The translations under genes and the position numbers were made by a program. The notes under the pieces were generated by a model. That model saw only the letters and a list, made by a program, of their open reading frames with translations, had not been told where the DNA came from and did not search any database. A stretch of DNA of 59,449 nucleotides, taken from a virus (taxonomy: Duplodnaviria; Caudoviricetes). Below, one piece after another: positions 36,909 to 52,095 of this stretch. Numbering within the stretch: position 1 is the first letter of the stretch; each line of letters opens with the position of its first letter. Location: the IMG/VR virus record IMGVR_UViG_3300016265_001128, positions 1 to 59,449 of that record; one strand, written 5' to 3'.

Positions 36909-37436
36909 CTATTTGCGAAGGCCAAAGTCAGGTCGTCCACGGAGAGGTTCGGACTTCATGCCATCACCGATTTCTGCAACAAGACTGTTGCCACGGCCGT
37001 CACGCATGAGTTCAAGCTGCGCTCGAAGTTTCTCCTCCTCCTCGAGCGGAGCGGTGTGATGCAGCTCGGTCATATACTTTTCCCATTGCTCGATCGGGAG
37101 CTTGAATGCCAACATTTCGTTGACGCCGATCATGCCGTCGTACTCGCCAGACTTCATCTTCAGGTTTTCAAAACCCGGAATGTCGGCGGCCGTGACTGGG
37201 GTATAGCCAAGACGTATCCTAGCTTGGATAGTATCTCGAGGATTTGTAGTTGTTAACCAAATTGTTTTGTAGCCTGGAATATTTGGCAAATTTGGCAACG
37301 CGTCGAACGAGAACTCATTACGAAACGACACAGCGGGGATTGCTTCTTCGCGAGGGTCGTTGTCGGTAGCGGCCCCGCGGTTTTCACGGCCCGTGTCAGC
37401 GGCCTTCTTCAGGCGGTCATCAGTGGAGTTTGCCAT
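36909..37436 (-). CDS. Conserved head-module protein
   Basis: P.IPGY...W, R.GY.PV and G.IGVNEML.FK.P. Confidence 0.7.
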   Translation of the reverse strand: MANSTDDRLKKAADTGRENRGAATDNDPREEAIPAVSFRNEFSFDALPNLPNIPGYKTIWLTTTNPRDTIQARIRLGYTPVTAADIPGFENLKMKSGEYDGMIGVNEMLAFKLPIEQWEKYMTELHHTAPLEEEEKLRAQLELMRDGRGNSLVAEIGDGMKSEPLRGRPDFGLRK

Positions 37437-37447
37437 GTCTGAAATCC

Positions 37448-38434
37448 TTATTTCTTCTGCGCTTTATCGTGCGCGATGTAGGCCTTGATCATCTTGTTGC
37501 GCTTGGCAACGTCGTCCCAGGCGCCAGCCTCCTTCAAGGCCGCGACGCGCTCCGCAGACAGCGTGATCTTGGTACCTGATGAACTTGACGCCGACACCGA
37601 GCCTTTGCCAGAGCCGCCGGTCACAGCGCGCGGACGATTTTCACCGTCCCGGTGAGCGGCCTGCTTGTAACGATGCGGCAGACGACGTTTCAGGCGGCGA
37701 TCCAGCTCGTCCCAATACTCAGGGGTTGCTGGGTCGTAGCCTTCCTCGATCACCTTGGTGTCGATAATCAGGGCAATTCTGGAATCCTCGTCGCCACGCT
37801 TGGGATCGTACCAGCGATTGCGACTCATCCAGTCTTCGCCGTAAGACCGGACCAACGGATCAATCGTCGCCCGCGGCGGTTGACGGACGGCATGTTTTTT
37901 CAGCTCGGATAGTTGTTCAACCGCTCGGCTGGCCTCGTACCACTTCTCCTGAGCCAACGCAAGGGTCTCGCCGTCACCTTTAGTCGCCGCGTCGGCCACC
38001 AATTGGCGATATTGAGCTGCAGCATTAGCCGCGTTGCGCAAGGCCGTGTCGATCTGCGTGACGTCCTGAGAAACCGAGCGACGTTCGGCCGCGTCAAGAC
38101 GCTTCTGCATGTCAGAAAGCATCTTTCTGGTGGCCTGCAGCTCAAGATCCTTGGCGCGGTCGTAGTTCCGCTTCTTTTCCTTGCGCTCTTGGCGTTCGCG
38201 CCGTCGACGTTCGCGTTTTTCTTCAGCGGTTTCGCCGTCGACGTCATCTTCTTGGTCGCCGTCGTCCTTTTCAGGCTCGACGTCGCCCTCGTCGGAGCCT
38301 TGGTCATCGTCTGGCTCATCCGAGTCGTCATCTTCTTGGTCAGTTTCCTTAGATTTCTTCTTCGGATCCTCTTCGATGATCTCAAAAGTGACGTCGTCTT
38401 CCTTCTCGACCTCAGCCGTGATTTTCTCAGCCAT
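37448..38434 (-). CDS. Putative scaffolding protein
   Basis: Acidic N-terminus, coiled coil, W..RN.WY, GYDP...EYW.ELD.R. Confidence 0.75.
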   Translation of the reverse strand: MAEKITAEVEKEDDVTFEIIEEDPKKKSKETDQEDDDSDEPDDDQGSDEGDVEPEKDDGDQEDDVDGETAEEKRERRRRERQERKEKKRNYDRAKDLELQATRKMLSDMQKRLDAAERRSVSQDVTQIDTALRNAANAAAQYRQLVADAATKGDGETLALAQEKWYEASRAVEQLSELKKHAVRQPPRATIDPLVRSYGEDWMSRNRWYDPKRGDEDSRIALIIDTKVIEEGYDPATPEYWDELDRRLKRRLPHRYKQAAHRDGENRPRAVTGGSGKGSVSASSSSGTKITLSAERVAALKEAGAWDDVAKRNKMIKAYIAHDKAQKK

Positions 38435-38444
38435 TTAGACCTCC

Positions 38445-38864
38445 TTAGACGAACGCTTTGATCGTGCGGGGGTCCACGGTGACGTGGCCGATCAGCTCGT
38501 GGTCATTGAAAATGACGAAAAGGGCCTCATCGTCGCCCCCTTTGCCAGGGATTTTGACGGCCCAACGGTCACCGCCAAATTTGGGCACGCGAACGTAGTC
38601 GCCGACGCTCGCCCAGGCGCCTTCCGGCCAAGGTTCGAGCGAATCGCGCTTCTTAAAGGCCAGCGGGCCAATGGCGCGAACCTTTGCGACAGTCGTGTTC
38701 CACTTTTCGACGTCCACGGCGTCAGCGACGATGATAATGCCGCCCTTTGACTTGGTCGCCGGGGTCCGGATTTGGACAAGGACGCGATGGCCGAGAGGCA
38801 GAACGCCCGGATCTAGGTTCGGGAACGCGTCGTCCATGCTTTGGTATTCGTCAAGCGCACTCAT
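38445..38864 (-). CDS. groES: GroES-like co-chaperonin
   Basis: PLGHRVLV, SKGGII, V.AIGP, VGD.V...K.GG and ND. Confidence 0.85.
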   Translation of the reverse strand: MSALDEYQSMDDAFPNLDPGVLPLGHRVLVQIRTPATKSKGGIIIVADAVDVEKWNTTVAKVRAIGPLAFKKRDSLEPWPEGAWASVGDYVRVPKFGGDRWAVKIPGKGGDDEALFVIFNDHELIGHVTVDPRTIKAFV

Positions 38865-39037
38865 ATCTCATCTTCCTCTTCTAAGATGCCTTTGACTATG
38901 TTCAGGGCTTCTTCCAAGCCCTCGTAACGACCTTGAACGCGGAGAAAAGCTTCCCAGTTACCGCAGCTTTTTACAGCCCCTAGGGCTAAATCAGCTTTTC
39001 TCCGCTCAAGTTGGTCGATGAATTTTTCGACTAACAG
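38861..39037 (-). CDS. Small hypothetical protein with CTG start (58 aa)
   Basis: GGAGGT RBS then CTG; in-frame TAA two codons upstream excludes an earlier start; ATGA overlap with groES. Confidence 0.6.
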   Translation of the reverse strand: MLVEKFIDQLERRKADLALGAVKSCGNWEAFLRVQGRYEGLEEALNIVKGILEEEDEI

Positions 39038-39204
39038 GCTTTACCTCCTTTCTTAAACCCCTTCGGCGACTTCTTGGTGTAGCCGGCGGGGTTCTTTTCG
39101 ACTTTCTCGTTGGCGGCCATTTTGACGAAGCCGCCCTTCTTCATGCCAGTAACCTTTTCCCCCATGGCCATCGCCTTGTGCTGGGGAACCTTGCCGTTAG
39201 CCAT
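39031..39204 (-). CDS. Small Lys-rich protein with two [MF]KKGG motifs (57 aa, below cutoff)
   Basis: MANGKVPQHKAMAMGEKVTGMKKGGFVK...KGFKKGGKAC; GAGGAG RBS. Confidence 0.7.
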   Translation of the reverse strand: MANGKVPQHKAMAMGEKVTGMKKGGFVKMAANEKVEKNPAGYTKKSPKGFKKGGKAC

Positions 39205-40756
39205 AGTTCTGATGCTCCTCTGTCACGACGCCGCCCTTCTTGAAGAGAGGGAAACCCTCCTTCAAGAGCTTATCACGGGCCTCTGGCGTCAGGCGAAGGC
39301 CGTGAACTGGGTAGGAACTAAGCCTCTCGTCTGGGGTGTTGGCCCAGTGGTGAACGATGTCTTGGAATTTATCAAACAGATCTTCTATAAAATCCTCTGG
39401 AGCTTGCGGCCCAGACGCGGGCAGCATCTGTTGATAGCTGCGCTGCCAGTTTAAAATATCAGGCACTATTTCGGGAGGTACGAGTGTGGTATCAAACAGG
39501 CGATGGTTTTGAGCACTTGGGACGGCTAAGGCGCGATCATTTGCAAGTCGCTCGAAAAGCTCTAAAGGTGAGTCGATGTCTTCACGAAACCGCTCATATT
39601 CTTCTCGAACAATGTTTCTAGCGTCTCGTTGAGGGCGGGTTAATAATTCGGGAGTGTCAGACATGTCCACCATCCTGGGTCCATCAACCCCCAGACGACG
39701 AGCTTCTTTTGCCATGACTTTGCCCATACGGCTGTCATAATTTAGGACATTCCCAGCTTCCTGCTTGCCACCGAGCTGTTGGGCGTTAACCTGTGTCTTC
39801 AACCGGCCAGGTGTCCAGGTAACTGCGTCTAAGCCACGCGTAGCCGCGTCGTATAGCGCTTGGCGAGCCGCGGCGTTTAGGTAGCCAGGGGCGCCGCCTA
39901 TTTCAGTCAGGAAAGGGGAATATGGGACACTGGCTTCGTAGTTGTTTTCTAAAAACTGCTCCACCCTATATTCAGGCCAACCCTGGCCCAGAAGGGGTTT
40001 TCTGATCTGTTTGATCATTGGCCCAGGCGGCGCCATGGTCTGTTCTTTATCCCGCACCGCCCGCTCAAGGTCGGATTGAATTTCTTCAATCAGAAGAGCT
40101 TTAGACTTGTCAGGCAGCTCGCGGTCAGACTGACGGCGCCAGTAGGCTGGCTTATCGCCATTAATCTTAAAATGTCCTCCGGTGGCATCGCCGTACGCTG
40201 GTTGCGTAGCCCACTTTGTAAGGACCTCGTTATAGTTTTCAAAGGGTCCGGGGAGACGTTGAAAACTTGCGTATTCTGGATCTCGTGCTTCCGGGTAATT
40301 AATCCAGGAATCGCGGATTGCTTGGCGGTGTGGTTCTTCTTCTCTAATACGACGCTGAAGCCACGCCATTCTCTCAGCGTCTGTTGTATTTAGCCCAGGT
40401 CGAGGTGAATTGTCCGCAATGGCCTCTATGGCTTCGTAGGCTTGGCGCTGGGCGGCATCGCGAGCGTCGGCAACCGATGGATCAACCTCGCGGCCAAGAT
40501 ACTCATCCCTATACCTCTGCCCTTCTGGCGGTGTTTGGATCAGCTCGCGCAACTCGTCCGCCGGCACCTTTTCCCGGCCCTCAAATTTGCTGGCAAAGTC
40601 GTATATGTCGGCTTCGGCCTTGGGCACGTTCTGATTATTGCCCAGCCACTTCAAGAACTGTTCACGGGTCATCTTGCCCGACAGCTTCTCAAGCTCGTCG
40701 CCTAAACGAGAGGTGGCTCCCTTAATCCCGAGATAACCCTCGCCCCAGTTAGGCAT
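39197..40756 (-). CDS. Polyvalent-protein-type domain protein with C-terminal FKKGG tag
   Basis: GHF......R..DR.......LIEEIQSD and A..G.DAV.W.PG motifs recalled from large polyvalent proteins. Confidence 0.65.
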   Translation of the reverse strand: MPNWGEGYLGIKGATSRLGDELEKLSGKMTREQFLKWLGNNQNVPKAEADIYDFASKFEGREKVPADELRELIQTPPEGQRYRDEYLGREVDPSVADARDAAQRQAYEAIEAIADNSPRPGLNTTDAERMAWLQRRIREEEPHRQAIRDSWINYPEARDPEYASFQRLPGPFENYNEVLTKWATQPAYGDATGGHFKINGDKPAYWRRQSDRELPDKSKALLIEEIQSDLERAVRDKEQTMAPPGPMIKQIRKPLLGQGWPEYRVEQFLENNYEASVPYSPFLTEIGGAPGYLNAAARQALYDAATRGLDAVTWTPGRLKTQVNAQQLGGKQEAGNVLNYDSRMGKVMAKEARRLGVDGPRMVDMSDTPELLTRPQRDARNIVREEYERFREDIDSPLELFERLANDRALAVPSAQNHRLFDTTLVPPEIVPDILNWQRSYQQMLPASGPQAPEDFIEDLFDKFQDIVHHWANTPDERLSSYPVHGLRLTPEARDKLLKEGFPLFKKGGVVTEEHQNYG

Positions 40757-41544
40757 TACTGATCTCCCTGACGACGGCGGAGGTAATCGTAGGCTTTCTG
40801 CAAGGACGCCTCGGAGGCCTGCATATTCCTCCAGAGCTGCTTGGCGTACGCTGTTGCGCCTTTAGGAGCTGCCGCCAACTCTTCGTCGGTAGGAGACTCC
40901 GCTATAACACCGCCAACGACGGCGGGTGCTGCTAGCTTCTTAGCAAAGAGAGAACTTGCAAGAGACCCGGCATCCATGATTGACGGCAGCAAGTGCTCTG
41001 CTACCTTTGCGGCGCCTTTGATCGGAGCCCCAGCCAAATACGTTGCCACATCAATCGGGGCAGCGACTCCCGCAAGCAGGCTGTTCGTCACCCCTTGACC
41101 AGTATCACCTCGTTGGTAAGCCTCGCGACCCTCGCGAAGCATACTCATGGATGGAGGCTCTACAACGCTATAGAGCATATCAAGCGCGTCTTTCATGGTG
41201 ACTTGGTTGCCGTAACGAATCGCGTCGCCAAACATTCCCTCGCCGGAGAACGGACGATCAAAGGCGCCTGCCTTGGCTGCGTCGACAACGGCCTCGCCGG
41301 CACCAACCCCTGGGCTAAAGCGGTTCATCATGGCCAAGGCGCCGGAGAGCGAGGGGGACGAAGACACCGGCTCAGGTGTAGGCCTTGATGGGTCGTACCA
41401 GCTCTGTCCTTCCCGCAGCTGCGACAAGGCCGAGTTGCGCGGGACGTTTCGCATATAGGCTCGAGCCCGCAAGGCCTCAAGCTGCTCAGGCGATAACGAC
41501 TGCAGGTCTTGGCGGCGTGCGTTCCTGTTGGTTGGCGACATCAA
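40756..41544 (-). CDS. Hypothetical cargo-like protein
   Basis: 262-aa ORF coupled in the portal-GroES interval. Confidence 0.65.
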   Translation of the reverse strand: MMSPTNRNARRQDLQSLSPEQLEALRARAYMRNVPRNSALSQLREGQSWYDPSRPTPEPVSSSPSLSGALAMMNRFSPGVGAGEAVVDAAKAGAFDRPFSGEGMFGDAIRYGNQVTMKDALDMLYSVVEPPSMSMLREGREAYQRGDTGQGVTNSLLAGVAAPIDVATYLAGAPIKGAAKVAEHLLPSIMDAGSLASSLFAKKLAAPAVVGGVIAESPTDEELAAAPKGATAYAKQLWRNMQASEASLQKAYDYLRRRQGDQ

Positions 41545-41611
41545 AACCTACCACCGTGACAAAGGCGTTAAGACTGTAGCACGAAGACGTGGACCTAGGG
41601 AACGGGTTTGT

Positions 41612-42562
41612 TTATTCATCTCGAACCTTAACCCAATTTGGCAGAGGCTCATCGTATTGCATAAGATGCTCGTCTGCAAGCCTATCAAAGGCATCTTTCG
41701 AAAGGCCACGTGTTTTCACCAAGTTAACAACTTCAGGTGGCCAATCTTCAATTGGCGTGCTTGATAGCAGATCTTCAAATGTTTCGTGCCCTATCTTCCC
41801 GCCAAAATTAGACAAGTTATAATCCATGTATTCTGCGCCCTGGCTTTCCATTTCTTTAAAGGCGTCAACTAATTCAGGGTCATGCTTTTTAACCAGGTTT
41901 ACGTAGTCATCGCCAGTGTAGTTTTTACCAGCGTGTTTTAAAAGCATAAACTCGTCTTGAGGGACGACCTCCAACGGATTGTCGTTGGTTCGGTAATCGA
42001 ATAACGTTCTAAAAGACTCCTTTGGAGAGGAATACCCAAGCCCGTCTCCGAATGGGTCAAGCCGCAACCTATCCTGCTGATACGTCGTCAAAAAACTACG
42101 AGCGTCGTCAAGGTCGTCGCCGGATAACTTCTTCTCTAAAAAACGATCAAGGTGTCGGATTGGACCTTCGCCTTCATCCATCATGCTAGTCATAAAATAC
42201 GGTTTTAGGCCGGGACGCTTAAGGATCTCTTCAATCAGGGATAAGACCGGGTTAATAGCCGGAGGAGCTGAAGCTTGCCCTAAACCTCCAACTAGCTTTT
42301 CCGCCAAACCGACTCTCCCCGGTATTGAAGCGGCGGCAGCGGCATTTCGCATGCCTTCCAAAAACTCACGGCGAGATGGTTCCGCCTCTAAAACAGATCT
42401 TCCCGCCTGACCAAGTCCACCTTCCGTGAGAGTCGGCAACTGCGGAGTCTCAACGACCGCCTGCGGGTTAGCAACTGGCGGGGCCTCTTTTGGGGCAAGC
42501 ATCTGAAAAAGCTTTCGCTTTCCTAAGTCCACGCCCTCCTCTATGATTTTCTTGCCAGCCAT
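41612..42562 (-). CDS. Hypothetical cargo-like protein with internal SRREFL motif
   Basis: ATG 42562 with GGAG RBS; long ORF after the portal. Confidence 0.7.
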   Translation of the reverse strand: MAGKKIIEEGVDLGKRKLFQMLAPKEAPPVANPQAVVETPQLPTLTEGGLGQAGRSVLEAEPSRREFLEGMRNAAAAASIPGRVGLAEKLVGGLGQASAPPAINPVLSLIEEILKRPGLKPYFMTSMMDEGEGPIRHLDRFLEKKLSGDDLDDARSFLTTYQQDRLRLDPFGDGLGYSSPKESFRTLFDYRTNDNPLEVVPQDEFMLLKHAGKNYTGDDYVNLVKKHDPELVDAFKEMESQGAEYMDYNLSNFGGKIGHETFEDLLSSTPIEDWPPEVVNLVKTRGLSKDAFDRLADEHLMQYDEPLPNWVKVRDE

Positions 42563-42594
42563 CAGTAGGTACTCCAAAGAGTGGAATGATTGCG

Positions 42595-45255
42595 CTATTC
42601 TACAGCGCTTGGCGGAGGTTCAACAACGTTTTCTTCTGTCACCAAGCCGCCCGCAGCCATCAGCCGACCAGGGTCGATGCCGTCACCATCTTTGAGGTTG
42701 CCAGTACCTTGGCCTGAGGCAACGCGCATCGACGAGATGTTGATGGCCGTCTGGTTGTCCTGCATATTGGTGGTCAGCTTGATCTGCATTTCTCGCATGT
42801 TGGCCTCAAGATCAGCGGCGATTTTCTCGCGTTCAAGGCGCATTTCCTCGATGAACTGCTGTTGCTTGGCCTGCATCTCGGCAATGTCCTGCTGCAGCTT
42901 GACCTGCTCCGCCTGGGCCTTGTTGGCGGCTTCTTGCTGGTCAACGTTAAGCTTCGCCTTGTCCAGCTCAAACTTCTGTTGATCAGCGGCCTTCTTACGC
43001 TCGATCTCAGCTTGGCCAAGCTGCATCTGAACCTGCGACGGATCAACCGGCGGAGGCATCTGCATCGACCGCATCAGGTCAACGGCCTTCTTGATGACGT
43101 CCTCGATTGGCTGAATTGTCTGCAACACTTCCTGGTTAATCATCGGGCTAGCCGCAGCCAACAGCTGCTCAACGGCCTGATCGACCTCGTCGCCCATCTT
43201 CATGAAGTCCGATAGCTCCTGACCAGCGGCGGCCGACGCTTTCTCGTACATCATGACCGTGTACAGCATGGCGATGTGCTGTTTCAGATGCTCAATGCAC
43301 AACGGCGCAAACTTCGGGATTGCCAGCTCGTTGCCGCCCAAGGCCGGGTTCTGCATGAAGTCGATGTGGACGGCGATGTGGCTCAGGTGATCCTGCGTAA
43401 TGAACGCCAAGGCCGGAGAACCCATGAGCATGGCGACATTCTCGTTCACCGGGTTCATGCGCTTGGGTTCGGGCGACTTGGCGAGAAGCTCCTCAAAGTC
43501 AGGAACCTTCATCATCTGCAAGATGCGCTTCTCAACCGTCCTAAGGTCGTACAGGCCAGGGACGGCTGCTGCCCGCTGAGACACCGCATTGATCTGGGCA
43601 AAACGCTGAGTTTCAGACCAAATCTGCGGGTCAGACACGGGGATGACGTCCATGTCACCCTCGTAGTCTTCCTTGCGGACGATCAGCTCGTCATCGATCC
43701 GAACCTCGTTATCCATGTACATCCGGTTAAGCCGGTGCAGGATGGCGAGCGTCTTCTCCTGGCTGGCGTGAAGGCGAGCGTGAATGGCCGAAAAGACCTT
43801 GCTGCCTTGCTCAATCAGCGCCATGGCCGTGCCGACCGGCATGTTATTACCGGCCTCGCTGATCTTCTCCTCAGCCGTCGACACGACACCCTTGGCAGCG
43901 TCCGTCAGCCAACCGAGTAGCTGGAACAACACTGTTGACGGCGGGTTGAACGGCATCGGCATGGCGAGCTTGCGGATGTCGTCAACGCCAGCCGAACCTT
44001 CAATCTCTTGAATCTGGGTAACGGCAACTTCGTCAGACTGACCCGACAGGCGGGCGCCCTTCATCTTCAGCAGGGTGGCGGCGTTATTGATGTGGGCCGA
44101 GTCAAGCAAGGCTCGAAGCGCCCCAGTAGCTGCCCCCGACAGGCCGCCAATCAGGTGCGGCAGGCCGATGCCGTAAGCCCCGCGCCAGGGGATAAAGACG
44201 TATTCAACGATCCAATCGAGCTTTTGCTGGAGCTCGTCGTTTTCTTCCCAGTTGCGGTAAATCGACAGCACGGTTTGGGTCGTTTCATCAACCGTGATGA
44301 TGTACGGCGCAGGTTCACCCTTGGTGGCGTATTCGTCTTCTTCAAATTCCCAAGTGGTATAGACCTCGTAGTCGATCCGAAGACCGTCTTCGTTGTAAGC
44401 GGTCTTATCCTTGCCTTCAATCTTGTCGTTGGCCTTCTCGGCCTTGGTGCGATCGGGTTCCTGCGAGGCGACAATGATGTCAACGTCGCGCCACAAGCCG
44501 GTGTTGATCCGGTTAAGGTATTCGACCTCGTCCAGCTCCATCATGTGCGTCGCGCGGCTGGACGTGTAGAAATTGGTAGCCGAATAGGGAAGAATGATGT
44601 TGTCGATCGGCACAAACTCGACGTCTGGGCGCTTCAACTTGAAGTTCCAGAACATTTTCATGTACTGAGAACCGCCCAACGGCAGCTGGGTCAGCATCTG
44701 CTCCAGCTCAGGCCGGTAAGATTGGATCTCCTTTGTGAGCTGCAGGTTCATGTGCTGGGCTTTACGGTAAGCCTTGGCCTGCTTTTTCTCCGTGTCCTTG
44801 CCCAAGATCTGAGTCTTCACCGGCCCGTTTGGCGGGAAGATTTCCTTGATTGCCGCAGACTCAAAGTCAACGCAGGCCTCGGCCAAGCACGGGTGCACGA
44901 CCTTAGAGGCGCCGTTGAATTGAGCCCCACCGGGGGCATCCTTGCCGAGGCCAGTCCGACGCAGGCCTTCTTCGTACTGCTCGTCGCGTTTTTTCCGGGC
45001 TTCTTTGTCCAGCTTGATCTTCTCAAGCAACTCGGTCGCAATAGACTTCAGCTCGCCTTCGTCCATATCTTCGGCAAGGTTTGCGTAGAAGTCAGTTTTA
45101 TCGGCGGCCTCTTTGGCATCGCCCTCGAGCGAAACAATGGCCGAGCCGTCTGGAAGCTCTTCGACCTCCGGCTCGTCGTCCGCTGGTGCCTCGATCTCCA
45201 AGCCACCAACGGCCTGCTCGTCGAGTTCTTCCTGGTCGTCCTGACTAATAGGCAT
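42595..45255 (-). CDS. Portal protein (P22-like, long C-terminal coiled-coil barrel)
   Basis: F.ANLAE, F.GAS.V.HP, P..GPVKT, YG.GL.HLIGGL..AAT.ALR.L.D and PVGT..AL.EQGSKV.SAIH.RLH. Confidence 0.9.
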   Translation of the reverse strand: MPISQDDQEELDEQAVGGLEIEAPADDEPEVEELPDGSAIVSLEGDAKEAADKTDFYANLAEDMDEGELKSIATELLEKIKLDKEARKKRDEQYEEGLRRTGLGKDAPGGAQFNGASKVVHPCLAEACVDFESAAIKEIFPPNGPVKTQILGKDTEKKQAKAYRKAQHMNLQLTKEIQSYRPELEQMLTQLPLGGSQYMKMFWNFKLKRPDVEFVPIDNIILPYSATNFYTSSRATHMMELDEVEYLNRINTGLWRDVDIIVASQEPDRTKAEKANDKIEGKDKTAYNEDGLRIDYEVYTTWEFEEDEYATKGEPAPYIITVDETTQTVLSIYRNWEENDELQQKLDWIVEYVFIPWRGAYGIGLPHLIGGLSGAATGALRALLDSAHINNAATLLKMKGARLSGQSDEVAVTQIQEIEGSAGVDDIRKLAMPMPFNPPSTVLFQLLGWLTDAAKGVVSTAEEKISEAGNNMPVGTAMALIEQGSKVFSAIHARLHASQEKTLAILHRLNRMYMDNEVRIDDELIVRKEDYEGDMDVIPVSDPQIWSETQRFAQINAVSQRAAAVPGLYDLRTVEKRILQMMKVPDFEELLAKSPEPKRMNPVNENVAMLMGSPALAFITQDHLSHIAVHIDFMQNPALGGNELAIPKFAPLCIEHLKQHIAMLYTVMMYEKASAAAGQELSDFMKMGDEVDQAVEQLLAAASPMINQEVLQTIQPIEDVIKKAVDLMRSMQMPPPVDPSQVQMQLGQAEIERKKAADQQKFELDKAKLNVDQQEAANKAQAEQVKLQQDIAEMQAKQQQFIEEMRLEREKIAADLEANMREMQIKLTTNMQDNQTAINISSMRVASGQGTGNLKDGDGIDPGRLMAAGGLVTEENVVEPPPSAVE

Positions 45256-45261
45256 TGACGT

Positions 45262-46047
45262 TTACTCTCTATCAAAGAAAATGCTTTGCAGCGGGCTACC
45301 GGTTTCTACTTTTGAGAAGTGTTGTGGATCACGACTTAAGCTTGGCAATTGAGACCGGTACAGACTCAGCTCATCCAGTAGGTGCTCAGGTAGGTAAGTA
45401 GCGTAATCCATCAAACCGTCATCGGCCATGCCAGACAGCACCGCTCGAAACCCCATGCTCGACTTAAATGAGGGGTCGGTTTCAATGGCTTTACCCCAAC
45501 TGCGACTTGCCTCGTGTTTTAAAGCGTTGTAAATCGGGAGGTTTACCGGGCGACCGTTTAACACGCGGTCAGTGGTCCCAAAAGGCTGGTTCATAAATGC
45601 CGAGTCTAGGCTAAACCCCCCAAACTCATCTGGGGCAACGGCCATGTGGTCAATACCTCGAAAGTTGTCGACAAGCATCATATCTTGTGGCGATAACGGA
45701 GTATACTGCCAGCCGCCCAATAAGCCACTTGGGTGGGTGTGCATCGCGTACGGGTCCTCAACAGACGGACCTAGTCTTTTATTTCCGCGGTAGTTCATCG
45801 AGTTAAAGTACTCGGCTGCTTGCGGCGGTATCTTTATGCTATCAACATCGCCAGCGAGCATCTCAAGTGGACCTTTCAAGCGGTCGCCATACTCAAGTAC
45901 TTCTTGACCAGCCGTTTGATTTGACTTTGTTGCGGCTATAATTCGTTTTGCGGCATCCTCAACCCACGTAGGCAAAGACTCTAAGACCTTAAACCGCACA
46001 TCTTCAGCCGGCTTGCCAGGAATAGGCTTAGGCGCTCTAGTCGGCAT
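45262..46047 (-). CDS. JAB/MPN-like metalloprotein
   Basis: Upstream Glu (GQEV), MHTHPS and LSPQD give the E...HxH...SxxD pattern. Confidence 0.6.
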   Translation of the reverse strand: MPTRAPKPIPGKPAEDVRFKVLESLPTWVEDAAKRIIAATKSNQTAGQEVLEYGDRLKGPLEMLAGDVDSIKIPPQAAEYFNSMNYRGNKRLGPSVEDPYAMHTHPSGLLGGWQYTPLSPQDMMLVDNFRGIDHMAVAPDEFGGFSLDSAFMNQPFGTTDRVLNGRPVNLPIYNALKHEASRSWGKAIETDPSFKSSMGFRAVLSGMADDGLMDYATYLPEHLLDELSLYRSQLPSLSRDPQHFSKVETGSPLQSIFFDRE

Positions 46048-46660
46048 GGTGATCCTTCATTTGGGCAAGGCCGCCTTTAGCGAAAGGCTTGAAGTAGTCG
46101 GAGAAATCTAACGGTTCTGGGTCATCACGCCGAAAACCTCTTTCTGGGACAACGGACCTTACCTGCCTTAGGTTTTCAAGTAGGGAATTAATGCTTTCGT
46201 CGTACAGCACGTTTTCCCCTTTAAGGGGACCGTATCCAAAGTATGGAAACAACCCGAGGATCGTTTTGTCTTGGCCTTGGTTAACTAAGCCTCGGTTTCG
46301 GTGGCGACCTTCGTGGCCGGCTATTCGGGCGACTGACAGATCTGACGGATCTCTTGGAATAATACTTAAGTGTGGCACGCTTGAAAAGCCGCCCTGATCC
46401 AAATACTTTTCTACCTTGGTTACATTCTTCAATGTCTGCTTTGCGCGATGCTCGGGAAGTCCAATGGCTAGTTCCTCAAACCGAGACGGGTCAAACGGCG
46501 TGATTGCAGCGCCAGCGTGGTTAAACAGGTGCGACAACGCCCCGTCCGTAAATTGTTGCTCAATTGCCGGAACCTCATCGGTTGCGCGTTCTAACCGACG
46601 GGCTCCAAGCACGCCTCGGCTCTGGGCTAACGCTCGGATTAACGCGGGGATGTCAGCCAC
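46037..46660 (-). CDS. ParB/Srx-like domain protein with C-terminal FAKGG tag
   Basis: VP.L...I.GHEGRHR motif; GTG with GGAGG RBS. Confidence 0.6.
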   Translation of the reverse strand: MADIPALIRALAQSRGVLGARRLERATDEVPAIEQQFTDGALSHLFNHAGAAITPFDPSRFEELAIGLPEHRAKQTLKNVTKVEKYLDQGGFSSVPHLSIIPRDPSDLSVARIAGHEGRHRNRGLVNQGQDKTILGLFPYFGYGPLKGENVLYDESINSLLENLRQVRSVVPERGFRRDDPEPLDFSDYFKPFAKGGLAQMKDHHAD

Positions 46661-46975
46661 GGGTACCTCCACTGGCTTGGGCGAGGCCGCCTTTTCTAAA
46701 ACCTAAACGCTTAGCAAAGGGAATGTCTTCGAACTCTTGCGGGGAATGGTTGTTGTCGTAAGGTAGTAAAGGGATATGGGTCCGCTGTTCAAATCTTGAA
46801 GCCTGCTCAGATGGAACGATAAGCGCAGACACGTCATCAAGCGTCACGGGTTTATGCACTTGGGCCTCAACATACGGGGTGGCTTGCTTCAGCATATCCT
46901 TAGACGCTCCCAAGCGTCGTCGCCCTTAGCTAGCCACTTGGTAAGTACCTTTCTCAAGGCATCGACGCTGGCCAA
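46653..46975 (-). pseudogene. Broken cargo gene: 28-aa N-terminal ORF out of frame with a C-terminal fragment (YVEAQVH motif, FRKGG tag)
   Basis: TTG 46975 (GAGGA RBS) ends at 46889; the other frame encodes PYVEAQVHKPVTLDDV, resembling DUF3626/ART-like C-termini. Confidence 0.5.
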
Positions 46976-46978
46976 TCC

Positions 46979-48376
46979 TCAAACTCCGTACGGATTTTCG
47001 CGCGGTTGGCGCGGCTCGGGTTCAGGCTCTGGGGGATCAATCGTCAACCACCGCTGGTCGCGCAGCAAGGCAAGCGCTTGGGTGAAAGAGTCGACGTAAT
47101 CGTCATGTTCTAACACGCTATCGTCGCCGTTGAACACACAAATTTGGTCGAGAAAAGGCGTAGCCCAGTCACAAAACATACCGGGACGCCGCTTTGACTC
47201 AGGGATCCAGACTCTCCCGTTGACGGGGAAGTGGCTCACGGCGTGCGCTCGCTGAGCCTTGTCAGCACGCCCCGGGTTGTAAGGCCGAACCGGCACGCCA
47301 GCCCGATGCAGCTCTTGGCAAAGAGAGATACCGGAGCCCTTGTCCTCAATCAGCAGGATATCAGGACGACGCGGCGGATCGCCATATTCTGCGATTGCCT
47401 CTTCCTTTGCCTTGGCCCGCAAGTCTGGAAACGTCAGGCGATCGGCCCAGGCGTCGCACAGCAGGACGTTAAGCTGCCGCTCAGGCCCGTGCTCGAAGAC
47501 ACCCCACGTAGTGCAGGCGGTCTGGTCGTTGATCGTCTTGTCCGTGAACGCCGTGTCATACGACTGGACAACGTACAGAAACTCAGGCAGATCCTTGTTA
47601 CTTGGCCAGAGTCGGAAGTCCTTGCGCTTGAAGATACCGCCCTCTTCAAGGTCAAGCAGTTCGCCGTACAGCTCTTGGCGGCCAATGGCCGTGCCCTCGT
47701 ATTGGGCGATGGCGGTGAAGAACGACGGGGCTAGGTTCTTGCGGTTCTCGTACGTTGTCCCCATGACCTTCATGATCCGGGGATTATTCACCAGGTCTCG
47801 GATAATCTTCTTGGGTTTTGGCGTCGTGGCCATGAGGATCTTTGGCCGTGTGCCGAGGCGGAGGCCAAACTGCATCATGTCCCAGGTGTCTTGGGGCCGA
47901 ACCCAGGCGGCAACCTCGTCACACAAGACGGCGTGATGCTGCGGACCACGAAGGCGTTCCGGTGACTCGGACGAGAAGCCCTTGAAGATGGTGCCGTTTT
48001 TCAACACCATCTCGAACAGCGACTTGTTGTAGTTCTCTATCAACTCGGGCGGCGTCGAGGCCAAGAGGCCGGACTCACCCTCAAAGCACGTGTCTCGGAC
48101 GTCAGAGCTTGTTGGAGCAATGACAGCGATGCGCCAGTTGGCGTTTTTGTAACCAAGCCACCAACCAGCTTCTGACAGACACTTGGTCTTGCCAAAGCCG
48201 CGACCAGCGAGCCACAAGATGCCGTCCCAATCTTCGTGGTCGGGAGCTAGTTGCTTGGGTCGAGCCTGCCCGATCCATTCCGTTCGCTTGGCAATAGCCG
48301 CCAAGTCCTCCAATGGCAGATCATACAGATCGCTCTGGAGGTTAAACAGCTCAGCGTCGTTCAGCAGAAAAGACAA
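46979..48376 (-). CDS. terL: Terminase large subunit
   Basis: AGRGFGKT Walker A, LRGPQ...CDE Walker B, TTP, SYDTAF, IEDK.SG and HDD.VD. Confidence 0.95.
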   Translation of the reverse strand: MSFLLNDAELFNLQSDLYDLPLEDLAAIAKRTEWIGQARPKQLAPDHEDWDGILWLAGRGFGKTKCLSEAGWWLGYKNANWRIAVIAPTSSDVRDTCFEGESGLLASTPPELIENYNKSLFEMVLKNGTIFKGFSSESPERLRGPQHHAVLCDEVAAWVRPQDTWDMMQFGLRLGTRPKILMATTPKPKKIIRDLVNNPRIMKVMGTTYENRKNLAPSFFTAIAQYEGTAIGRQELYGELLDLEEGGIFKRKDFRLWPSNKDLPEFLYVVQSYDTAFTDKTINDQTACTTWGVFEHGPERQLNVLLCDAWADRLTFPDLRAKAKEEAIAEYGDPPRRPDILLIEDKGSGISLCQELHRAGVPVRPYNPGRADKAQRAHAVSHFPVNGRVWIPESKRRPGMFCDWATPFLDQICVFNGDDSVLEHDDYVDSFTQALALLRDQRWLTIDPPEPEPEPRQPRENPYGV

Positions 48377-48664
48377 TGGTTAATAGCCCTGGGTCATGAA
48401 CCAAGGCTATTGTAACCCGAGATATGACTTAGATGAAACGGGTTAAGGCCGCGGCCTCACCAGATAACGGAACGCTGAATTGTCAGCGTAGCTTCCGAGG
48501 ATCAAGGCTTTGTAATCCAATCACCTGGGGGCTTTCGACTAGCGGGCGGAAACACACAATTTCCACCGTCCGCGTTGACCCGGAAAGAGGGCACAATATC
48601 CACCGGGCCTGTTCGCCGCCGTCATCTGGCGAGGTCGCTACTCAATCCCGACTAGCGGGTAGGC

Positions 48665-48778
48665 TTGACGCGACGACGGAGGGAGTCGAACCCCCGGCAG
48701 GGCCAGCCCGTCAACGGCTATTGGCCTCAGTCTTGTTGGCGTCACGTTTAAGCCATCTCACGCACGCCGCCGCGTCAA
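48665..48778 (-). ncRNA. tRNA-like element (class II-like) with unpaired anticodon arm and extended acceptor helix
   Basis: Acceptor GGCGGCG/CGTCGTC, D-arm CGT-GAGATGGCTTAA-ACG, T-arm GGGGG-TTCGACT-CCCTC, long variable arm; no CCA. Confidence 0.6.
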
Positions 48779-48805
48779 CTCTGTGCCATTGTTGGAAAAA
48801 TCGGT

Positions 48806-49141
48806 CTATTTCCCTTCTCGTATGGCTGCGATCATTGACGTCAAACGCTGCCTCATTTTGATTTCAAACTTCTCTCGCGGCGAACAGTGGGAAGCCTTTC
48901 GCCAAAACCCGCTTGGAAGTTTATTCATATCAGAAAACGCCCGCTCTATCACCGCGTCACTCGGCTTTTCCAGTTCGGAAAGGATGGCGTCGATGACCGG
49001 CTGAAGATAAAAATCCCCGTCAAGAACCACGTAGGTAGAAACGCCATTGGCTTGGCGCTGCTCGCAGAAATCTTGCTCATTCAGCGCGTCAAATGCCGCC
49101 TTGACCAGCCTATCGCGGGTTGACTCAGTCATTTGAAACAA
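48806..49141 (-). CDS. Hypothetical protein
   Basis: AIL.EL..PS...I and AMIAA pattern; start may be 49132. Confidence 0.6.
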   Translation of the reverse strand: MFQMTESTRDRLVKAAFDALNEQDFCEQRQANGVSTYVVLDGDFYLQPVIDAILSELEKPSDAVIERAFSDMNKLPSGFWRKASHCSPREKFEIKMRQRLTSMIAAIREGK

Positions 49142-49225
49142 CCACCGGAGATTGAGTCGCCCGTGGCGACTCAGCCTGCGACGCGCAGAAGATGCTCAAT
49201 GCCGTTGCCAACGAAATCAAGAAGC

Positions 49226-49843
49226 TCACGACTCTCTCCCGTGGTGACGGCAAAACTCTTTGCCGAGCTTACGATGCGCGCGACAACCGTCCTTTGCGCA
49301 GAGCATCGTGGGGTTGACGTATGGCTTATTTCCGGCTAATCCTAACCTAAGAACCTTTTTCTGTACATAGCTCATTGAGCAGTTAAGCTTTTCTTTGATC
49401 TGCCGATAGCTAAGGTCGGACCGGTAAAGCTCGATGAACTCCTCGTCCGTAATTAGCTTCTGCCGCGTCCGTTTTGTTAAGCCGGCGTTATCCTTCCAGT
49501 GACGCAGCGTCGTCATCCCGATGCCAAGCTCAACCAAGATAACGGAAGTCTTCTCGCCGTCTCGGAACATCTGTAAGGCCTTGGCCCTAATAGACGCTGG
49601 CTTTTTGTTGCCGACCTGTCTTGGAGAGACTAGGCCCTCAACCCATTTGCGCATTGTCCGAGGCGCTATCTTCAGCTCTTCTCGGATCTTGCGCGGATTA
49701 ATGCCAGCCTTGAACAGCTGGATTGCCCGCGTTCGCTTATCGTTCCATTGGATTCGATCGAGCTTCTCGGTCGCGTAGTTCGGAACAAGGTTGACACGCT
49801 GCTCCAACGGCAGCGGCAAGCGGACGCGAACGTCCATCGTCAC
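49226..49843 (-). CDS. Multi-HTH DNA-binding protein
   Basis: Three tandem HTH-like units (RKIREELKIAPRTMRKW; ELGIGMTTLRHW; SYRQIKEKLNCSMSYV) and C-terminal Cys/His. Confidence 0.7.
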   Translation of the reverse strand: MTMDVRVRLPLPLEQRVNLVPNYATEKLDRIQWNDKRTRAIQLFKAGINPRKIREELKIAPRTMRKWVEGLVSPRQVGNKKPASIRAKALQMFRDGEKTSVILVELGIGMTTLRHWKDNAGLTKRTRQKLITDEEFIELYRSDLSYRQIKEKLNCSMSYVQKKVLRLGLAGNKPYVNPTMLCAKDGCRAHRKLGKEFCRHHGRES

Positions 49844-49845
49844 GG

Positions 49846-50046
49846 CTAAAGCTCCCCCTTGCCAAGGCGATACGCGACTCGGATAGAACGTTCTATGGCC
49901 GCGGCCAGCTTAATGGGATCGTTTGGGTATAGGTTAACCAGTTCCAGCGCCGACAATGAGCTATTGCTGTGGTAAACAATTGGACCAGGGTCAGCCGTGT
50001 ATGGGTTTTGCCACCGCAGCAAAGCCTCAATGAGAGCCTCGTCCAT
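49846..50046 (-). CDS. Small hypothetical protein
   Basis: GAGGG RBS; packed in the operon. Confidence 0.55.
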   Translation of the reverse strand: MDEALIEALLRWQNPYTADPGPIVYHSNSSLSALELVNLYPNDPIKLAAAIERSIRVAYRLGKGEL

Positions 50047-50226
50047 TCAACCCTCTGACAGCATCTTGGCTCGGTGTTTTTCCATGCCAATGCGCATCAA
50101 CTCTTGCGCCACGTAGCGATCAACGGCTTTGTTGACTAAGTCCGTCTTGGATTCGTGCGTAAGCCGCGACAAAGTGTACAGTCGCTCGGTAACCTCCTTG
50201 CGGAGATGGTACGCGTTGTCTGACAT
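50047..50226 (-). CDS. Ribbon-helix-helix-like protein
   Basis: YHL..EV.ERL..LS..T..SKTDLVNKAVD.Y. Confidence 0.65.
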   Translation of the reverse strand: MSDNAYHLRKEVTERLYTLSRLTHESKTDLVNKAVDRYVAQELMRIGMEKHRAKMLSEG

Positions 50227-50411
50227 CAGGCAGCTCGCGACTGGCGACCGCGCCACGGCCAACCGTTTACCACCGCGGTCCGCTCAAGTCCGGGATCCGG
50301 GTTAGCTTTGCCGTCCAGCAGGAACTTGTACCAGATGTCGCGCAGCTTGCCCGGGTTCTTGGCGGCGAGACGCCGCCGTTCACCGCGGTAGGTGCTCTGA
50401 TCTCTTGCCAT
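50226..50411 (-). CDS. Small basic hypothetical protein
   Basis: GAGGA RBS; TGATG overlap. Confidence 0.55.
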   Translation of the reverse strand: MARDQSTYRGERRRLAAKNPGKLRDIWYKFLLDGKANPDPGLERTAVVNGWPWRGRQSRAA

Positions 50412-50431
50412 TGTCTATCCTCAGGCTGCCG

Positions 50432-50698
50432 CTATTCGACCAATTCATAGGTCAATTCGAAAATGTCCGGCTTGCACGGGTAAAATTCGCTCTTCACGCC
50501 CTTGATGATCCAGTCGCCAAAATTGGCTTCCATCTCGCCTTCAAGCGTAGGGATCTGAATGATCCGGTCTTGCGGAGGGAGCCGTGTACCCCGCAACGAG
50601 CCGCCACACCATTCCGCCAGCCGGTTTTGCTCCGCCATAACAATAGAGTCAAAAGGCTTGGCCTCGATAACAACCGGCTTCTTTCTAAACTTGGGCAT
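50432..50698 (-). CDS. Conserved phage protein (KKPVVIEA / PGDYG-like family)
   Basis: KFRKKPVVIEA...TLEG.M.A..GDWIIKGV..EFYPCKPDIF..TYE. Confidence 0.8.
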   Translation of the reverse strand: MPKFRKKPVVIEAKPFDSIVMAEQNRLAEWCGGSLRGTRLPPQDRIIQIPTLEGEMEANFGDWIIKGVKSEFYPCKPDIFELTYELVE

Positions 50699-50789
50699 GT
50701 TCTTACCTCATTGGCGTTTGCTCGCATATCTTACGCGGAGCAGGCTAAACAGGGAACAGAAAAATAATTGCGAATTGCCCACATTTTCT

Positions 50790-50819
50790 GTGTACGACCT
50801 GCATAGAACCGTATAGGAT
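50790..50819 (+). promoter_or_regulatory. Putative early promoter GTGTAC-N18-TAGGAT
   Basis: Same motif as 1853 and 5335; drives the isolated + strand gene. Confidence 0.65.
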
Positions 50820-50868
50820 ACCTATATGAACAACGCGCATCCCGCGCGTCCAGAGAGGAGAGACGAGC

Positions 50869-51306
50869 ATGACCAAGAAGCAGCTGATCGCCCGCGCCAC
50901 CGAGCTGAAGATCGTCGGCCGTTGGGACATGACCACCGAGCAACTGACCAACGCGATCGCGGTCATCGAGCTGGCCAACAAGCCCAAGCGCCGCAAGGGC
51001 AACGGCGAGCGCAAGCCCTACCACTTCAAGCTGTACCGCCTCTCGGCCGTCCGTAACACGCGGTCGCTGAAGGACGAGGCCCGTCAGGTTCGCGCGATGG
51101 TCGCCGCGATGTACAAGGCCGGCACGCCGATGATTGGCTCGCAGATCGCCCAGCTGGCGATCGACATCGGCTTCATGAAGACGAAGTCCGATCCGGCCGT
51201 GATCTTCGCGTATTACCGCAAGCGTCTGGAAATCTACGGCCTCGAGTTTGTCGGCTACGCCAACGCCGAGGACATCGTGTCGCTGAAGCTGGCCAAGCTC
51301 GCCTAA
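50869..51306 (+). CDS. Winged-helix-like protein (paralog 3)
   Basis: ARQVR...MKTKSDPAVIFAYYRKRLEIYGL; AGAGAGGAG RBS. Confidence 0.75.
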   Translation: MTKKQLIARATELKIVGRWDMTTEQLTNAIAVIELANKPKRRKGNGERKPYHFKLYRLSAVRNTRSLKDEARQVRAMVAAMYKAGTPMIGSQIAQLAIDIGFMKTKSDPAVIFAYYRKRLEIYGLEFVGYANAEDIVSLKLAKLA

Positions 51307-51391
51307 TGGGCGAGCAGCTAGCGATCTACTCCGCCCTCGCTGGAATGGGCTTGGGCGGAGTTGTGTTTCTGATACTGCTGTGGAAAGGATG

Positions 51392-51416
51392 AAGGGCTGG
51401 AGCGATCCGGCCCTTT
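51392..51416. terminator. Putative bidirectional terminator
   Basis: aagggctgga-gcga-tccggcccttt between convergent genes. Confidence 0.55.
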
Positions 51417-52095
51417 ACCTATCGAGCCAGTGGCGAACTAAACCGCCGTGAGCAAACCAACCGCCGGCATCTCCAGCGGCACCGAAGCCAGCTGAGCCGT
51501 CGACGCCACCTTGGCTGCCGCCGCCGATGTCACCGCCCTGGTCACCTGAAGTATCGAACGAGAAGTCGTCGCCCTCCATGTCGACATCTTGGCTCAGGTC
51601 CGCGACGTTCCCCGGCAAGTCATAGGACAAACTGTTCGAGTCCACGTTTGACGCATCAATGCCGGGAAGGCCCATGATGCCGTCAATGGCGATCGTGTTC
51701 AGGTTGCGGTCGCGGGCATTGGTAACCGAGGTGCCAAGCATCCCTAGACTTAACGAGTTGACCAGGCCGCTGAAGTAGTCGCTAACGCCAAGGCCGAGAC
51801 CAGCTTGGTCGTTGGCCGCCGAGATAGAGTCGTTGGCATTCGAGATGTCGAATGCATTGCCGATGGCCGAGCCGATTGGACCGGCAAGTGAGCCGAGACC
51901 AAGCATCCCGGCTAAGGTGCCAGCATACCCCATGGCCGTGGAGTTGGACATATCGTTCCAAGCCGACGATATCGAACCCAAGGCGCCTTGTGCGGCAGCC
52001 TCGGCGTCCAAGTCATTGACCTGACCATCAAGGTTAAAGTCCTGCGTAGGACCTTGACCGTTCACGCTGCCAGGGGAATAGACCTCTAAAGCCAT
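51415..52095 (-). CDS. Acidic Gly/Asp/Ser-rich protein with TM-like segment and C-terminal FAHGG tag
   Basis: Follows TerS; AGGA RBS; GxxxG hydrophobic stretch. Confidence 0.7.
   Translation of the reverse strand: MALEVYSPGSVNGQGPTQDFNLDGQVNDLDAEAAAQGALGSISSAWNDMSNSTAMGYAGTLAGMLGLGSLAGPIGSAIGNAFDISNANDSISAANDQAGLGLGVSDYFSGLVNSLSLGMLGTSVTNARDRNLNTIAIDGIMGLPGIDASNVDSNSLSYDLPGNVADLSQDVDMEGDDFSFDTSGDQGGDIGGGSQGGVDGSAGFGAAGDAGGWFAHGGLVRHWLDR

Follow-up and report, generated by a model that had tools for sequence, protein, structure and literature searches.

Short peptides that sort or process proteins inside a virus head are known from several systems. In phage T4, the capsid-targeting sequence (CTS) is a short N-terminal peptide of the internal proteins and of Alt; it attaches to the scaffolding core, and the prohead protease cuts it off at L/I-x-E. 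The scaffold of phage P22 recruits both the portal and the ejection proteins, and does so without proteolysis; we know of no peptide common to these P22 proteins. The adenovirus protease recognizes the consensus (M/I/L)-X-G-G-X, cutting after the second Gly, while ubiquitin-like C-termini of the form ...RGG are processed by JAB/ULP enzymes. The mobile loop of GroES carries three consecutive hydrophobic residues, which bind GroEL. How podophages lacking a T4-type protease select and inject their cargo is poorly understood. Here we analyze a seven-residue Gly-Gly peptide, PHI-[AKR]-x-G-G-x-[VA] (PHI, a bulky residue), shared by otherwise unrelated late proteins of a podophage akin to Caulobacter phage RW and HTVC023P-type phages. 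The analyzed stretch, hereafter the window, is the complete virus record IMGVR_UViG_3300016265_001128 of IMG/VR (Duplodnaviria; Caudoviricetes), 59,449 bp in length, with direct terminal repeats at its ends.

Like the T4 CTS, the window motif is a short peptide on unrelated proteins, those of T4 being swappable cargo that ends up in the head and is injected. Unlike the CTS, it is C-terminal or internal, has a Gly-Gly core and is frequently present in multiple copies, and our scans revealed no protease. Its working resembles that of the CTS in outcome at most, and it falls outside that system; the analogy with T4 capsid targeting drawn in an earlier note on this DNA fails both on position, as the copies are not N-terminal, and on the cleavage consensus. 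The head genes of the window phage resemble those of the P22 kind, a scaffold partner being here a conjecture. As in adenovirus and ubiquitin-like sites, a bulky residue followed by Gly-Gly is seen in internal or core proteins that are unrelated to each other, some of them small, basic and DNA-associated; however, all eight window copies have the bulky residue at P5 (F/M-x-x-G-G), whereas adenain sites have it at P4. The loop of the window GroES-like protein, K-[ST]-x-G-G-[IV]-[IVL], also resembles the motif, but the window copies have no hydrophobic triplet after Gly-Gly, and their carriers have no GroES fold.

Another related class is that of polyvalent proteins, multi-domain effectors encoded beside portal and terminase genes; the main text of Iyer et al. 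(2017; PMC5512222) describes them as virion-associated, with catalogued domains including InPase, delivered by fusion to MuF or portal domains and processed by MPTase peptidases. One of the window carriers contains a module that occurs in such proteins. The difference is that the window proteins are mostly single-module and bear the Gly-Gly peptide rather than a fusion; a shared Gly-Gly peptide was not found in that main text, where the words "glycine" and "linker" do not occur (PMC5512222). Nor was the motif found described elsewhere in print: full-text searches with tag strings turned up no phage paper (subscription journals and supplements being outside their coverage), no such motif is named in titles or abstracts on capsid targeting and ejection proteins, and none was found in the accessible part of the HTVC023P pan-genome paper (PMC9599517).

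Copies, counts, and carriers in the window

The 5-mer [FM][AKR]xGG occurs in the window in eight copies in seven proteins, all encoded on the minus strand. All copies listed in the earlier note are present, with one range (22413-22430) taking in the next codon, the copy itself being at 22416-22430. The motif extends to seven residues: Gly-Gly is followed by L, V, F, or K and then by V or A, the triplets being VVT, LVT, LAQ (three times), LVR, FVK, and KAC. Three copies read [KR]GGLAQ, and two read GG[VL]VTEE. A six-frame scan of the window yields 11 matches to the 5-mer; the three beyond the eight lie in short non-coding frames (34, 66, and 107 codons). Six copies begin 8-21 residues from the C-terminus, as had been claimed (within about 20 residues); seven of the eight are 8-37 residues from it, the eighth is internal, 82 residues from the end, and N-terminal copies number 0/8.

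Comparison with per-protein shuffles shows strong enrichment. Among 81 open reading frames (ORFs; 18,473 amino acids) the 5-mer is observed 8 times versus 1.57 in shuffles (0/2000 shuffles reach 8); at 6-25 residues from the C-terminus, 6 times versus 0.13 (0/2000); and, with [LV] after Gly-Gly, 6 times versus 0.25. The strict 7-mer [FYMW][AKR]xGGx[VAIL] gives 8 copies versus 0.84 expected (0/500 shuffles). All eight copies fall in the 37 late minus-strand ORFs (9,771 amino acids) and none in the other 44 (8,702 amino acids; binomial p = 0.006), in line with the earlier note, in which no copy was noticed in replication or early proteins; motif-free plus-strand genes include those for DNA polymerase A, thymidylate synthase, and a methyltransferase. 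The ORFs were chosen mechanically, and the set holds some shadow ORFs; the motif was defined after looking, hence the shuffle figures make it look somewhat more significant than it is. A stronger test than the window shuffles is its independent recurrence in other genomes.

The largest carrier is the portal protein (42595-45255, minus strand, as are all carriers; 886 amino acids; phrog_1216 portal, E 7.5e-21), with MAAGGLV at 42640-42660 (5-mer 42646-42660), 21 residues from the C-terminus. This copy lies on an extension of about 22 residues past the G-x-(I)DP end common to the closest homologues (RW and locus L002). Three of 79 other portal homologues carry an independently gained [LM]AHGGQV near the C-terminus. 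The 519-residue protein (39197-40756), a member of a module family identified by phmmer, ends ...LTPEARDKLLKEGFPLFKKGGVVTEEHQNYG and has FKKGGVV at 39224-39244 (5-mer 39230-39244), homologous to the motif at the family's module end. The adjacent lysine-rich protein of 57 residues (39031-39204) has two copies, MKKGGFV at 39124-39144 (5-mer 39130-39144) and FKKGGKA at 39037-39057 (5-mer 39043-39057), the latter followed by Cys and the stop codon. It belongs to a family of small basic proteins ending in GGK(A/M)C, with kin in RW (gp092c), L036 (78 amino acids), L072 (138 amino acids), and MW202545.1 (449 amino acids).

Two carriers lie between the gene of the terminase large subunit (TerL) and the portal gene. 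An ORF of 86 residues directly downstream of TerL (46653-46913) has FRKGGLA at 46680-46700 (5-mer 46686-46700), and an ORFan of 211 residues (46037-46672) has FAKGGLA at 46064-46084 (5-mer 46070-46084); each copy is 15 residues from the end. For the 211-residue protein, language-model comparison gives weak ParB-like and ART-like leads (0.80 and 0.78), and Pfam gives no match. Its HEGRH string (HExxH) was considered as a zincin site and dropped, as no family supports it; the same string also resembles the ParB-type G-x-H-R. A glycine-rich ORFan of 226 residues (51415-52095), with FAHGGLV at 51436-51456 (5-mer 51442-51456), 13 residues from the end, is the sole carrier outside the contiguous head-tail block; its gene is downstream of the SNF2 helicase gene and is followed by a terminator-like hairpin.

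The internal copy, MKRGGLA at 22410-22430 (5-mer 22416-22430), is in an ejection-like protein of 476 residues (22182-23612), so assigned by its neighbor and by homologues of its C-terminal domain: the adjoining gene, 21294-22178, matches phrog_4287, "DNA ejection protein". The copy sits just upstream of the conserved C-terminal domain (...DDTVPARLSVGEYVIPADVVAHLGDGS...).

Close relatives of several window proteins were sought in four collections. None was found for the 261-residue untagged neighbor of the portal (see below) and the 519- and 211-residue proteins in viral contigs, for the 519-residue protein in metagenome contigs, or for the 211- and 519-residue proteins in cultured phages; no homologue of the 261- and 226-residue proteins was found in a set of 5.8 billion proteins. 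Scanning of metagenome contigs with the portal gave nothing closer than 55%, and the collections searched yielded no close relative of the window phage.

Recurrence in relatives and in two protein families

Two spring-water genomes, MW202545.1 and MW202675.1, whose portals are 51% and 31% identical to that of the window, show strong enrichment of the strict 7-mer: 10 copies versus 0.77 expected and 8 versus 1.0, respectively (0/500 shuffles each, 8-13 fold). The enrichment check against shuffled proteins suggested in the earlier note thus comes out positive for the window and for these relatives. Carriers in MW202675.1 are all four large proteins encoded in a row from the portal to the GroES-like gene (an annotated peptidase M15, an 847-residue member of the 519-residue family, an annotated type I restriction enzyme, and "yenB"), and also a 197-residue ejection-like protein and "internal virion protein D". 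The tagged proteins of MW202545.1 comprise a 900-residue protein abutting the portal, with four copies by eye; a 449-residue lysine-rich protein after the major capsid protein (MCP), with at least seven copies and the end ...GGPAKC; a 171-residue protein ending in FKKGGKVNW; and a 639-residue ejection-like protein. No replication gene of either genome is a carrier.

In distant portal relatives the motif is seen in runs of 3-5 adjacent small, very basic proteins encoded 6-9 kb downstream of the portal (L011:18542-21330; L072:11739-13468; L066:10515-11967; L036:16953-17893; L137:17626-18849). Many of these proteins end in [FYM]K[KE]GGxVS[SA]AS[KR]RADG[IC]Ax[KR]GKT[KR]G+xx; in these the distance of the motif from the end is always 26-27 residues. 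A second family, which includes the window 57-residue protein (FKKGGKAC) and RW gp092c, ends in M[AK][RS]GGK(A/M)C, and its final cysteine is conserved across distant phages. The N-terminus of one basic protein matches PHROGs named "virion structural protein"; Pfam yields no family for the eight basic proteins scanned. In 24 non-redundant loci of portal relatives (at least 12 kb each) there are 28 copies versus 3.0 expected, an undercount, since some small genes were lost to shadow ORFs. Tandem pairs 8-11 residues apart occur in independent proteins (FKKGGKVKKFAEGG, YKKGGSVKKYASGG, and RYADGGLAGYADGG), and some copies end their proteins (FRRGGAV, YMDGGRV, FKKGGKAC), in part 2-3 residues before the stop.

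The 24-locus count leaves out a site in TerL. In 74 TerL homologues the string RFRQGGF[IL], found close to the C-terminus, conforms to the pattern, but it was rejected as a tag: it lies right after the HDD motif of the nuclease, aligns with LREGMLV of T7 gp19 (8dgc), and is a helix-turn-strand of the fold. The window TerL has LLRDQRWLTI at the corresponding site.

The C-terminal 100 residues of the 476-residue ejection-like protein have 95 homologues (P0046-P0140), with the family consensus PHI-x-x-G-G-x-[LA]-x-G-x-GDGMSDxIPA...QPARLSxGEFVIPADVVSxLGNGS. In at least 49 of the 79 homologues whose core was found by a regular expression, a copy lies at most 45 residues upstream of the core, and most of the rest of these 79 show near variants, e.g., AARGGLM. 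The RW ejection-like protein (gp066c) keeps MARGGYA and ends in YMDGGRV; MW202675.1 keeps MKRGGKI. Two family members weakly match tape-measure PHROGs across the C-terminal region (E 5e-5 and 6e-4). For the 476-residue member, no Pfam family covers the C-terminal domain (22182-22490, minus strand). An AlphaFold2 model of the ejection C-terminus (56 sequences) predicts the conserved domain as mostly helical at a predicted local distance difference test (pLDDT) of 82-93, while the 34 residues holding the motif are at pLDDT below 50. Low-confidence motif residues beside a confident fold point to a short linear motif within disordered sequence. A Foldseek comparison of the domain model with the PDB gave nothing below E 5, and PDB sequence searches with two ejection-like proteins gave nothing meaningful.

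A phmmer search with the 519-residue protein against 1.84 billion representatives gives 44 matches at E <= 1e-3. They share an uncharacterized module with a core like SSHWDxPNVLAHxR...LHxEExQSDW and an end ...[LI]TPExRxK[IL]LKxG[FL]PxF-x-x-G-G-x-V; the tag of the window protein is this module end. The protein is a divergent single-module member, relatives of 1,000-2,000 residues holding several modules; its assignment as a polyvalent-module member is supported by the family matches. Relative P0033 has InPase (PF18823) at the N-terminus, and P0018 has an SLT domain; in the Pfam scan of the 519-residue protein and eight relatives, P0033 alone gave a match (InPase), the window protein and seven relatives giving none. 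Additional copies in the large proteins lie between modules, at times in tandem and at times as the final residues (FRRGGAV, FRDGGMVYR); their typical form is [YF]A[DE]GGxV, with acidic residues after it. Overall, the strict 7-mer is found 29 times in 43 family members versus 1.48 expected (0/300 shuffles), in 16 of the 43 proteins and after 16 of 35 module ends. The 519-residue gene is among the late genes, two genes downstream of the portal gene, and the arrangement in MW202675.1 is the same. Of the cargo folds named in the earlier note, the polyvalent domain is upheld by these matches; the ParB-like and ART-like folds are not, given the weak leads for the 211-residue protein.

Directly observed, then, are the motif and its enrichment, its confinement to late-operon and virion-module genes, and the fact that it recurs in unrelated families and in other phages; the pattern is real and generalizes well beyond the window.

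A possible docking role and its alternatives

From sequence and synteny we infer, tentatively and at somewhat less than even confidence, that PHI-[AKR]-x-G-G-x-[VA] is a docking or assembly motif of head-internal proteins that acts without proteolysis. It would act as a short linear motif, placed in disordered tails and linkers, and the proteins bearing it are those with a predicted location in the head interior: the innermost C-terminal tip of the portal, ejection proteins, cargo-like and polyvalent proteins, and small basic proteins. The seven residues would form a tight Gly-Gly turn that binds a common head-assembly component or other copies of the tag; candidate partners are the scaffold, the portal or core, and a multi-copy basic hub protein. 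During procapsid assembly, tagged proteins would collect at the portal and core, to exit later with the DNA. In the window phage, the tag would have been added to the portal tip and to lineage-specific genes inserted around terL and the portal gene. The more general proposal of the earlier note, that the motif labels packaged and injected proteins, is a plausible one, to which gene context in several genomes lends partial support.

By analogy, the candidate partners rank with the protein at the scaffold position first, because the P22 scaffold recruits portal and ejection proteins, followed by the portal or core and then by tag-to-tag contacts. The scaffold-position protein (328 residues; 37448-38434, minus strand), encoded between the GroES-like gene and the MCP gene, matches phrog_28737 (unknown function) and is syntenic with RW gp089c. 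The presence of at least seven copies in one protein of MW202545.1 suggests a multivalent hub. Complex prediction for the two-tag 57-residue protein with the scaffold-position protein and MCP scored 0.00 versus a mark of 0.34, which speaks neither for nor against binding.

Several observations weigh against the docking reading. The closest cultured relative, RW, is not enriched (3 copies versus 0.88; 38/500 shuffles reach this count), and two of its three matches look spurious; CRP-901 and HTVC023P, in the regions read, have sparse or degenerate copies, e.g., FKRGGDV in HTVC023P gp43, with gp30 as another HTVC023P carrier. The closest relatives lack the portal extension and the exact copies of the 57-residue protein. 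The module of the 519-residue family also occurs, without the motif, in a 4,012-residue internal protein of a cyanophage. Residues flanking Gly-Gly range from basic to acidic, unusual for a single binding pocket, and the 226-residue carrier is encoded at the edge of the replication genes. It is from gene position that the inserted proteins are predicted to reside in the virion. No relatives of the 211- and 226-residue proteins were found, and the 86-residue protein was covered by family scans; with five of the seven carriers (these three, the portal, and the 57-residue protein) beyond orthologue comparison, conservation holds for the motif class and not for each tag.

An alternative, in our estimate quite unlikely, is maturation cleavage after Gly-Gly by a phage or host peptidase, which would trim tails and split polyvalent modules. 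It would account for copies at module boundaries of multi-module proteins, for small residues at the would-be P2/P1 preceded by a bulky and a basic residue, for the short tails after Gly-Gly (10, 10, 10, 8, and 16 residues), for the adenovirus-like and ubiquitin-like look of the site, and for the strong conservation, such as a removable targeting peptide could show, of the 22 residues that follow Gly-Gly in the relatives' small basic proteins. The candidate enzyme is an untagged 261-residue protein encoded between the 211-residue gene and the portal gene (45262-46047, minus strand), putatively a processing enzyme by its residues HTHP and SPQD, 13 residues apart, which resemble a JAB/MPN metal site (E...HxH...S-x-x-D in the JAB fold); the spacer is presumably longer than usual for the JAB family. 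The named families closest to it by language model, Toxin-JAB1 and Prok-JAB (0.87), are a lead only, whereas the structure-based lead is MuF-like (template modeling score 0.56); an AlphaFold2 model made without an alignment has pLDDT 41, and Pfam gives no match even at E 10. A JAB-like enzyme as a general companion of the motif was rejected, the HxHP...SxxD signature being in no other fetched locus despite the wide spread of the motif. Further, no prohead protease or other protease family was found by Pfam and/or PHROGs in 40 window proteins, 30 of them of the late operon (small ORFs being covered in part), and no clan CE cysteine protease (adenain-like or ULP-like) was found in the proteins scanned. 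The MCP (304 residues; 35400-36314, minus strand; phrog_371) has no long N-terminal extension to be cleaved and matches the capsid halves alone of the protease-capsid fusions phrog_4523 and phrog_133. We prefer a binding unit to a cleavage site because copies end proteins, some 2-3 residues from the last residue, because they occur in tandem 8-11 residues apart, and because the residue at +2 is conserved.

A turn or hinge with no specific binding partner is likewise unlikely. It would allow long and partly unfolded internal proteins to double back, to be threaded through portal and tail, or to build beta-meanders with one another once ejected, a tape-measure-like property. Regularly spaced tandem arrays in lysine-rich proteins, predicted disorder, variable flanking charges, and the position of the motif before an ejection domain with weak tape-measure matches are all consistent with it; yet it leaves unexplained the conserved bulky residue at -4 and Val/Ala at +2, and also the copies at extreme C-termini of globular proteins and the gain on portal tips. 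Mimicry of the GroES mobile loop, with the tag binding host GroEL and recruiting the chaperonin to aggregation-prone internal proteins, seems very improbable. A GroES-like gene adjoins the tagged genes, and the loops KSKGGIII (window), KTKGGIIL (RW), KTAGGILL (CRP-901), and KTKGGVIL (HTVC023P) resemble K-[AS]-K-G-G-x-V copies such as NKAKGGQV; however, the tags frequently have a charged or polar residue (E, K, S, R, N, Q) right after Gly-Gly in place of the GroES hydrophobic triplet, and the loops of distant relatives have a single Gly (ETGILK, ESGLIK), while their tags keep two. According to the pan-genome paper, GroES is a core gene of HTVC023P-type phages (PMC9599517). The reading that there is no protein signal at all, the pattern arising by chance, from composition, or as a side effect of ribosome-binding sites or of recombination scars where genes end, is largely refuted. 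Three tags are exactly 10 residues before stops in genes overlapping the start region of the next gene, GGC is a favored codon, and the motif was defined post hoc; but the observed counts are never reached by per-protein shuffles in the window, the two complete relatives, or the 519-residue family, and other genomes repeat the motif with different codons and at internal positions. An artifact of ribosome-binding sites was rejected, as the distances from Gly-Gly to the next start are 14, 23, 26, 69, 179, and 418 nt, and the Shine-Dalgarno strings of the next genes (GGAGG, AAGGA, GAGGAG) are separate, 3' of the tags. The near-identity of tag DNA reported in the earlier note does hold: AAAGGCGGCCT(T/C)GCCCAA is common to the 211- and 86-residue tags (17/18 bases) and spans just the six codons of KGGLAQ. 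Its suggested use as a recombination point is weak, the identity being largely forced by residues and codon preference, and a recombination scar was rejected, as no other tag pair is more alike in DNA than its residues require.

A bolder form of the docking reading is doubtful, though not far-fetched: the Gly-Gly peptide could be a portable and sufficient address label for the head interior, read by one conserved head component across a very large set of aquatic podophages and in polyvalent-protein phages. A tag-held core would then form on the portal tip and a multi-copy basic hub protein, and any gene gaining the tag would become injected cargo. If true, this would explain the lineage-specific gene islands around the portal. 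A shared peptide would supply a simple rule of cargo selection that can be applied to the sequences of thousands of uncultured aquatic phage genomes. It would point out which ORFans are candidate injected effectors, and as a small tag it could be used to load reporters or enzymes into phage heads. Even as a cleavage site or a hinge, the motif would be a strong sequence marker of virion-internal proteins that is not captured by current family databases.

Gene order and further observations

By portal similarity, the nearest named relatives of the window phage are Caulobacter phages RW, KcrB, RLK, and GB2A (47% identity); the Roseobacter phages CRP-901/902 and Pelagibacter phages HTVC023P/027P are more remote. 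The portal tblastn matches are portal or connector genes of RW and others. The plus strand (about 1-17.8 kb) encodes replication and nucleotide-metabolism functions, including the three motif-free genes named above. The minus strand, read from high to low coordinates, starts with genes for a primase-helicase, an SNF2 helicase, a helix-turn-helix protein at the small-terminase position, and the untagged TerL (46979-48376; Pfam Terminase_6N/6C). These are followed by the ORFan genes of 86, 211, and 261 residues, the portal gene, genes of 321, 262, 519, and 57 residues, and the GroES-like co-chaperonin gene (38445-38864; Pfam Cpn10, E 9.4e-7; phrog_3188); then come the 328-residue scaffold-position protein, MCP, and tail, lysis, and ejection genes. 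The untagged ORFan genes of 262 and 321 residues (40756-42577, minus strand), placed by gene position and family scans, complete the insertion between the portal and 519-residue genes.

In RW, just three small genes separate the portal gene from the GroES-like gene, and terL and the portal gene have a tRNA gene between them. With so few genes around the RW portal, the 86-, 211-, and 261-residue genes and the 321-, 262-, and 519-residue genes are lineage-specific insertions in the window. The slot from the portal to the GroES-like gene in MW202675.1 (L083 12316-20978) holds four large proteins versus the three small genes of RW, and it looks like a hotspot for cargo-like genes.

Terminator-like inverted repeats are seen 3' of the 57-residue gene, within 38870-39030 (GCGGAGAAAAGC...GCTTTTCTCCGC), and 3' of the 226-residue gene, at 51380-51414 (AAGGGC...GCCCTT); they suggest transcript ends within the long minus-strand block.

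Among the early plus-strand genes, one encodes an Imm5-like putative immunity domain (14093-14755; PF21805, E 3e-12) and another a DUF932 protein (5399-6349; E 1e-43). The primase-helicase (54447-56765, minus strand) has DUF7146, Toprim_3, and DUF5906/VapE-like domains and the C-terminus ...ARTDDLPF. The acidic C-terminal tip of the bacterial single-stranded DNA-binding protein (SSB) is DDDIPF; the end of the primase-helicase resembles it and may be a mimic that docks on SSB-binding host proteins. Finally, RW (L081) has at 37117-39919 two coding sequences annotated as "large terminase subunit" with a gene of a SAM-dependent methyltransferase between them, and its terminase gene may be split or interrupted.

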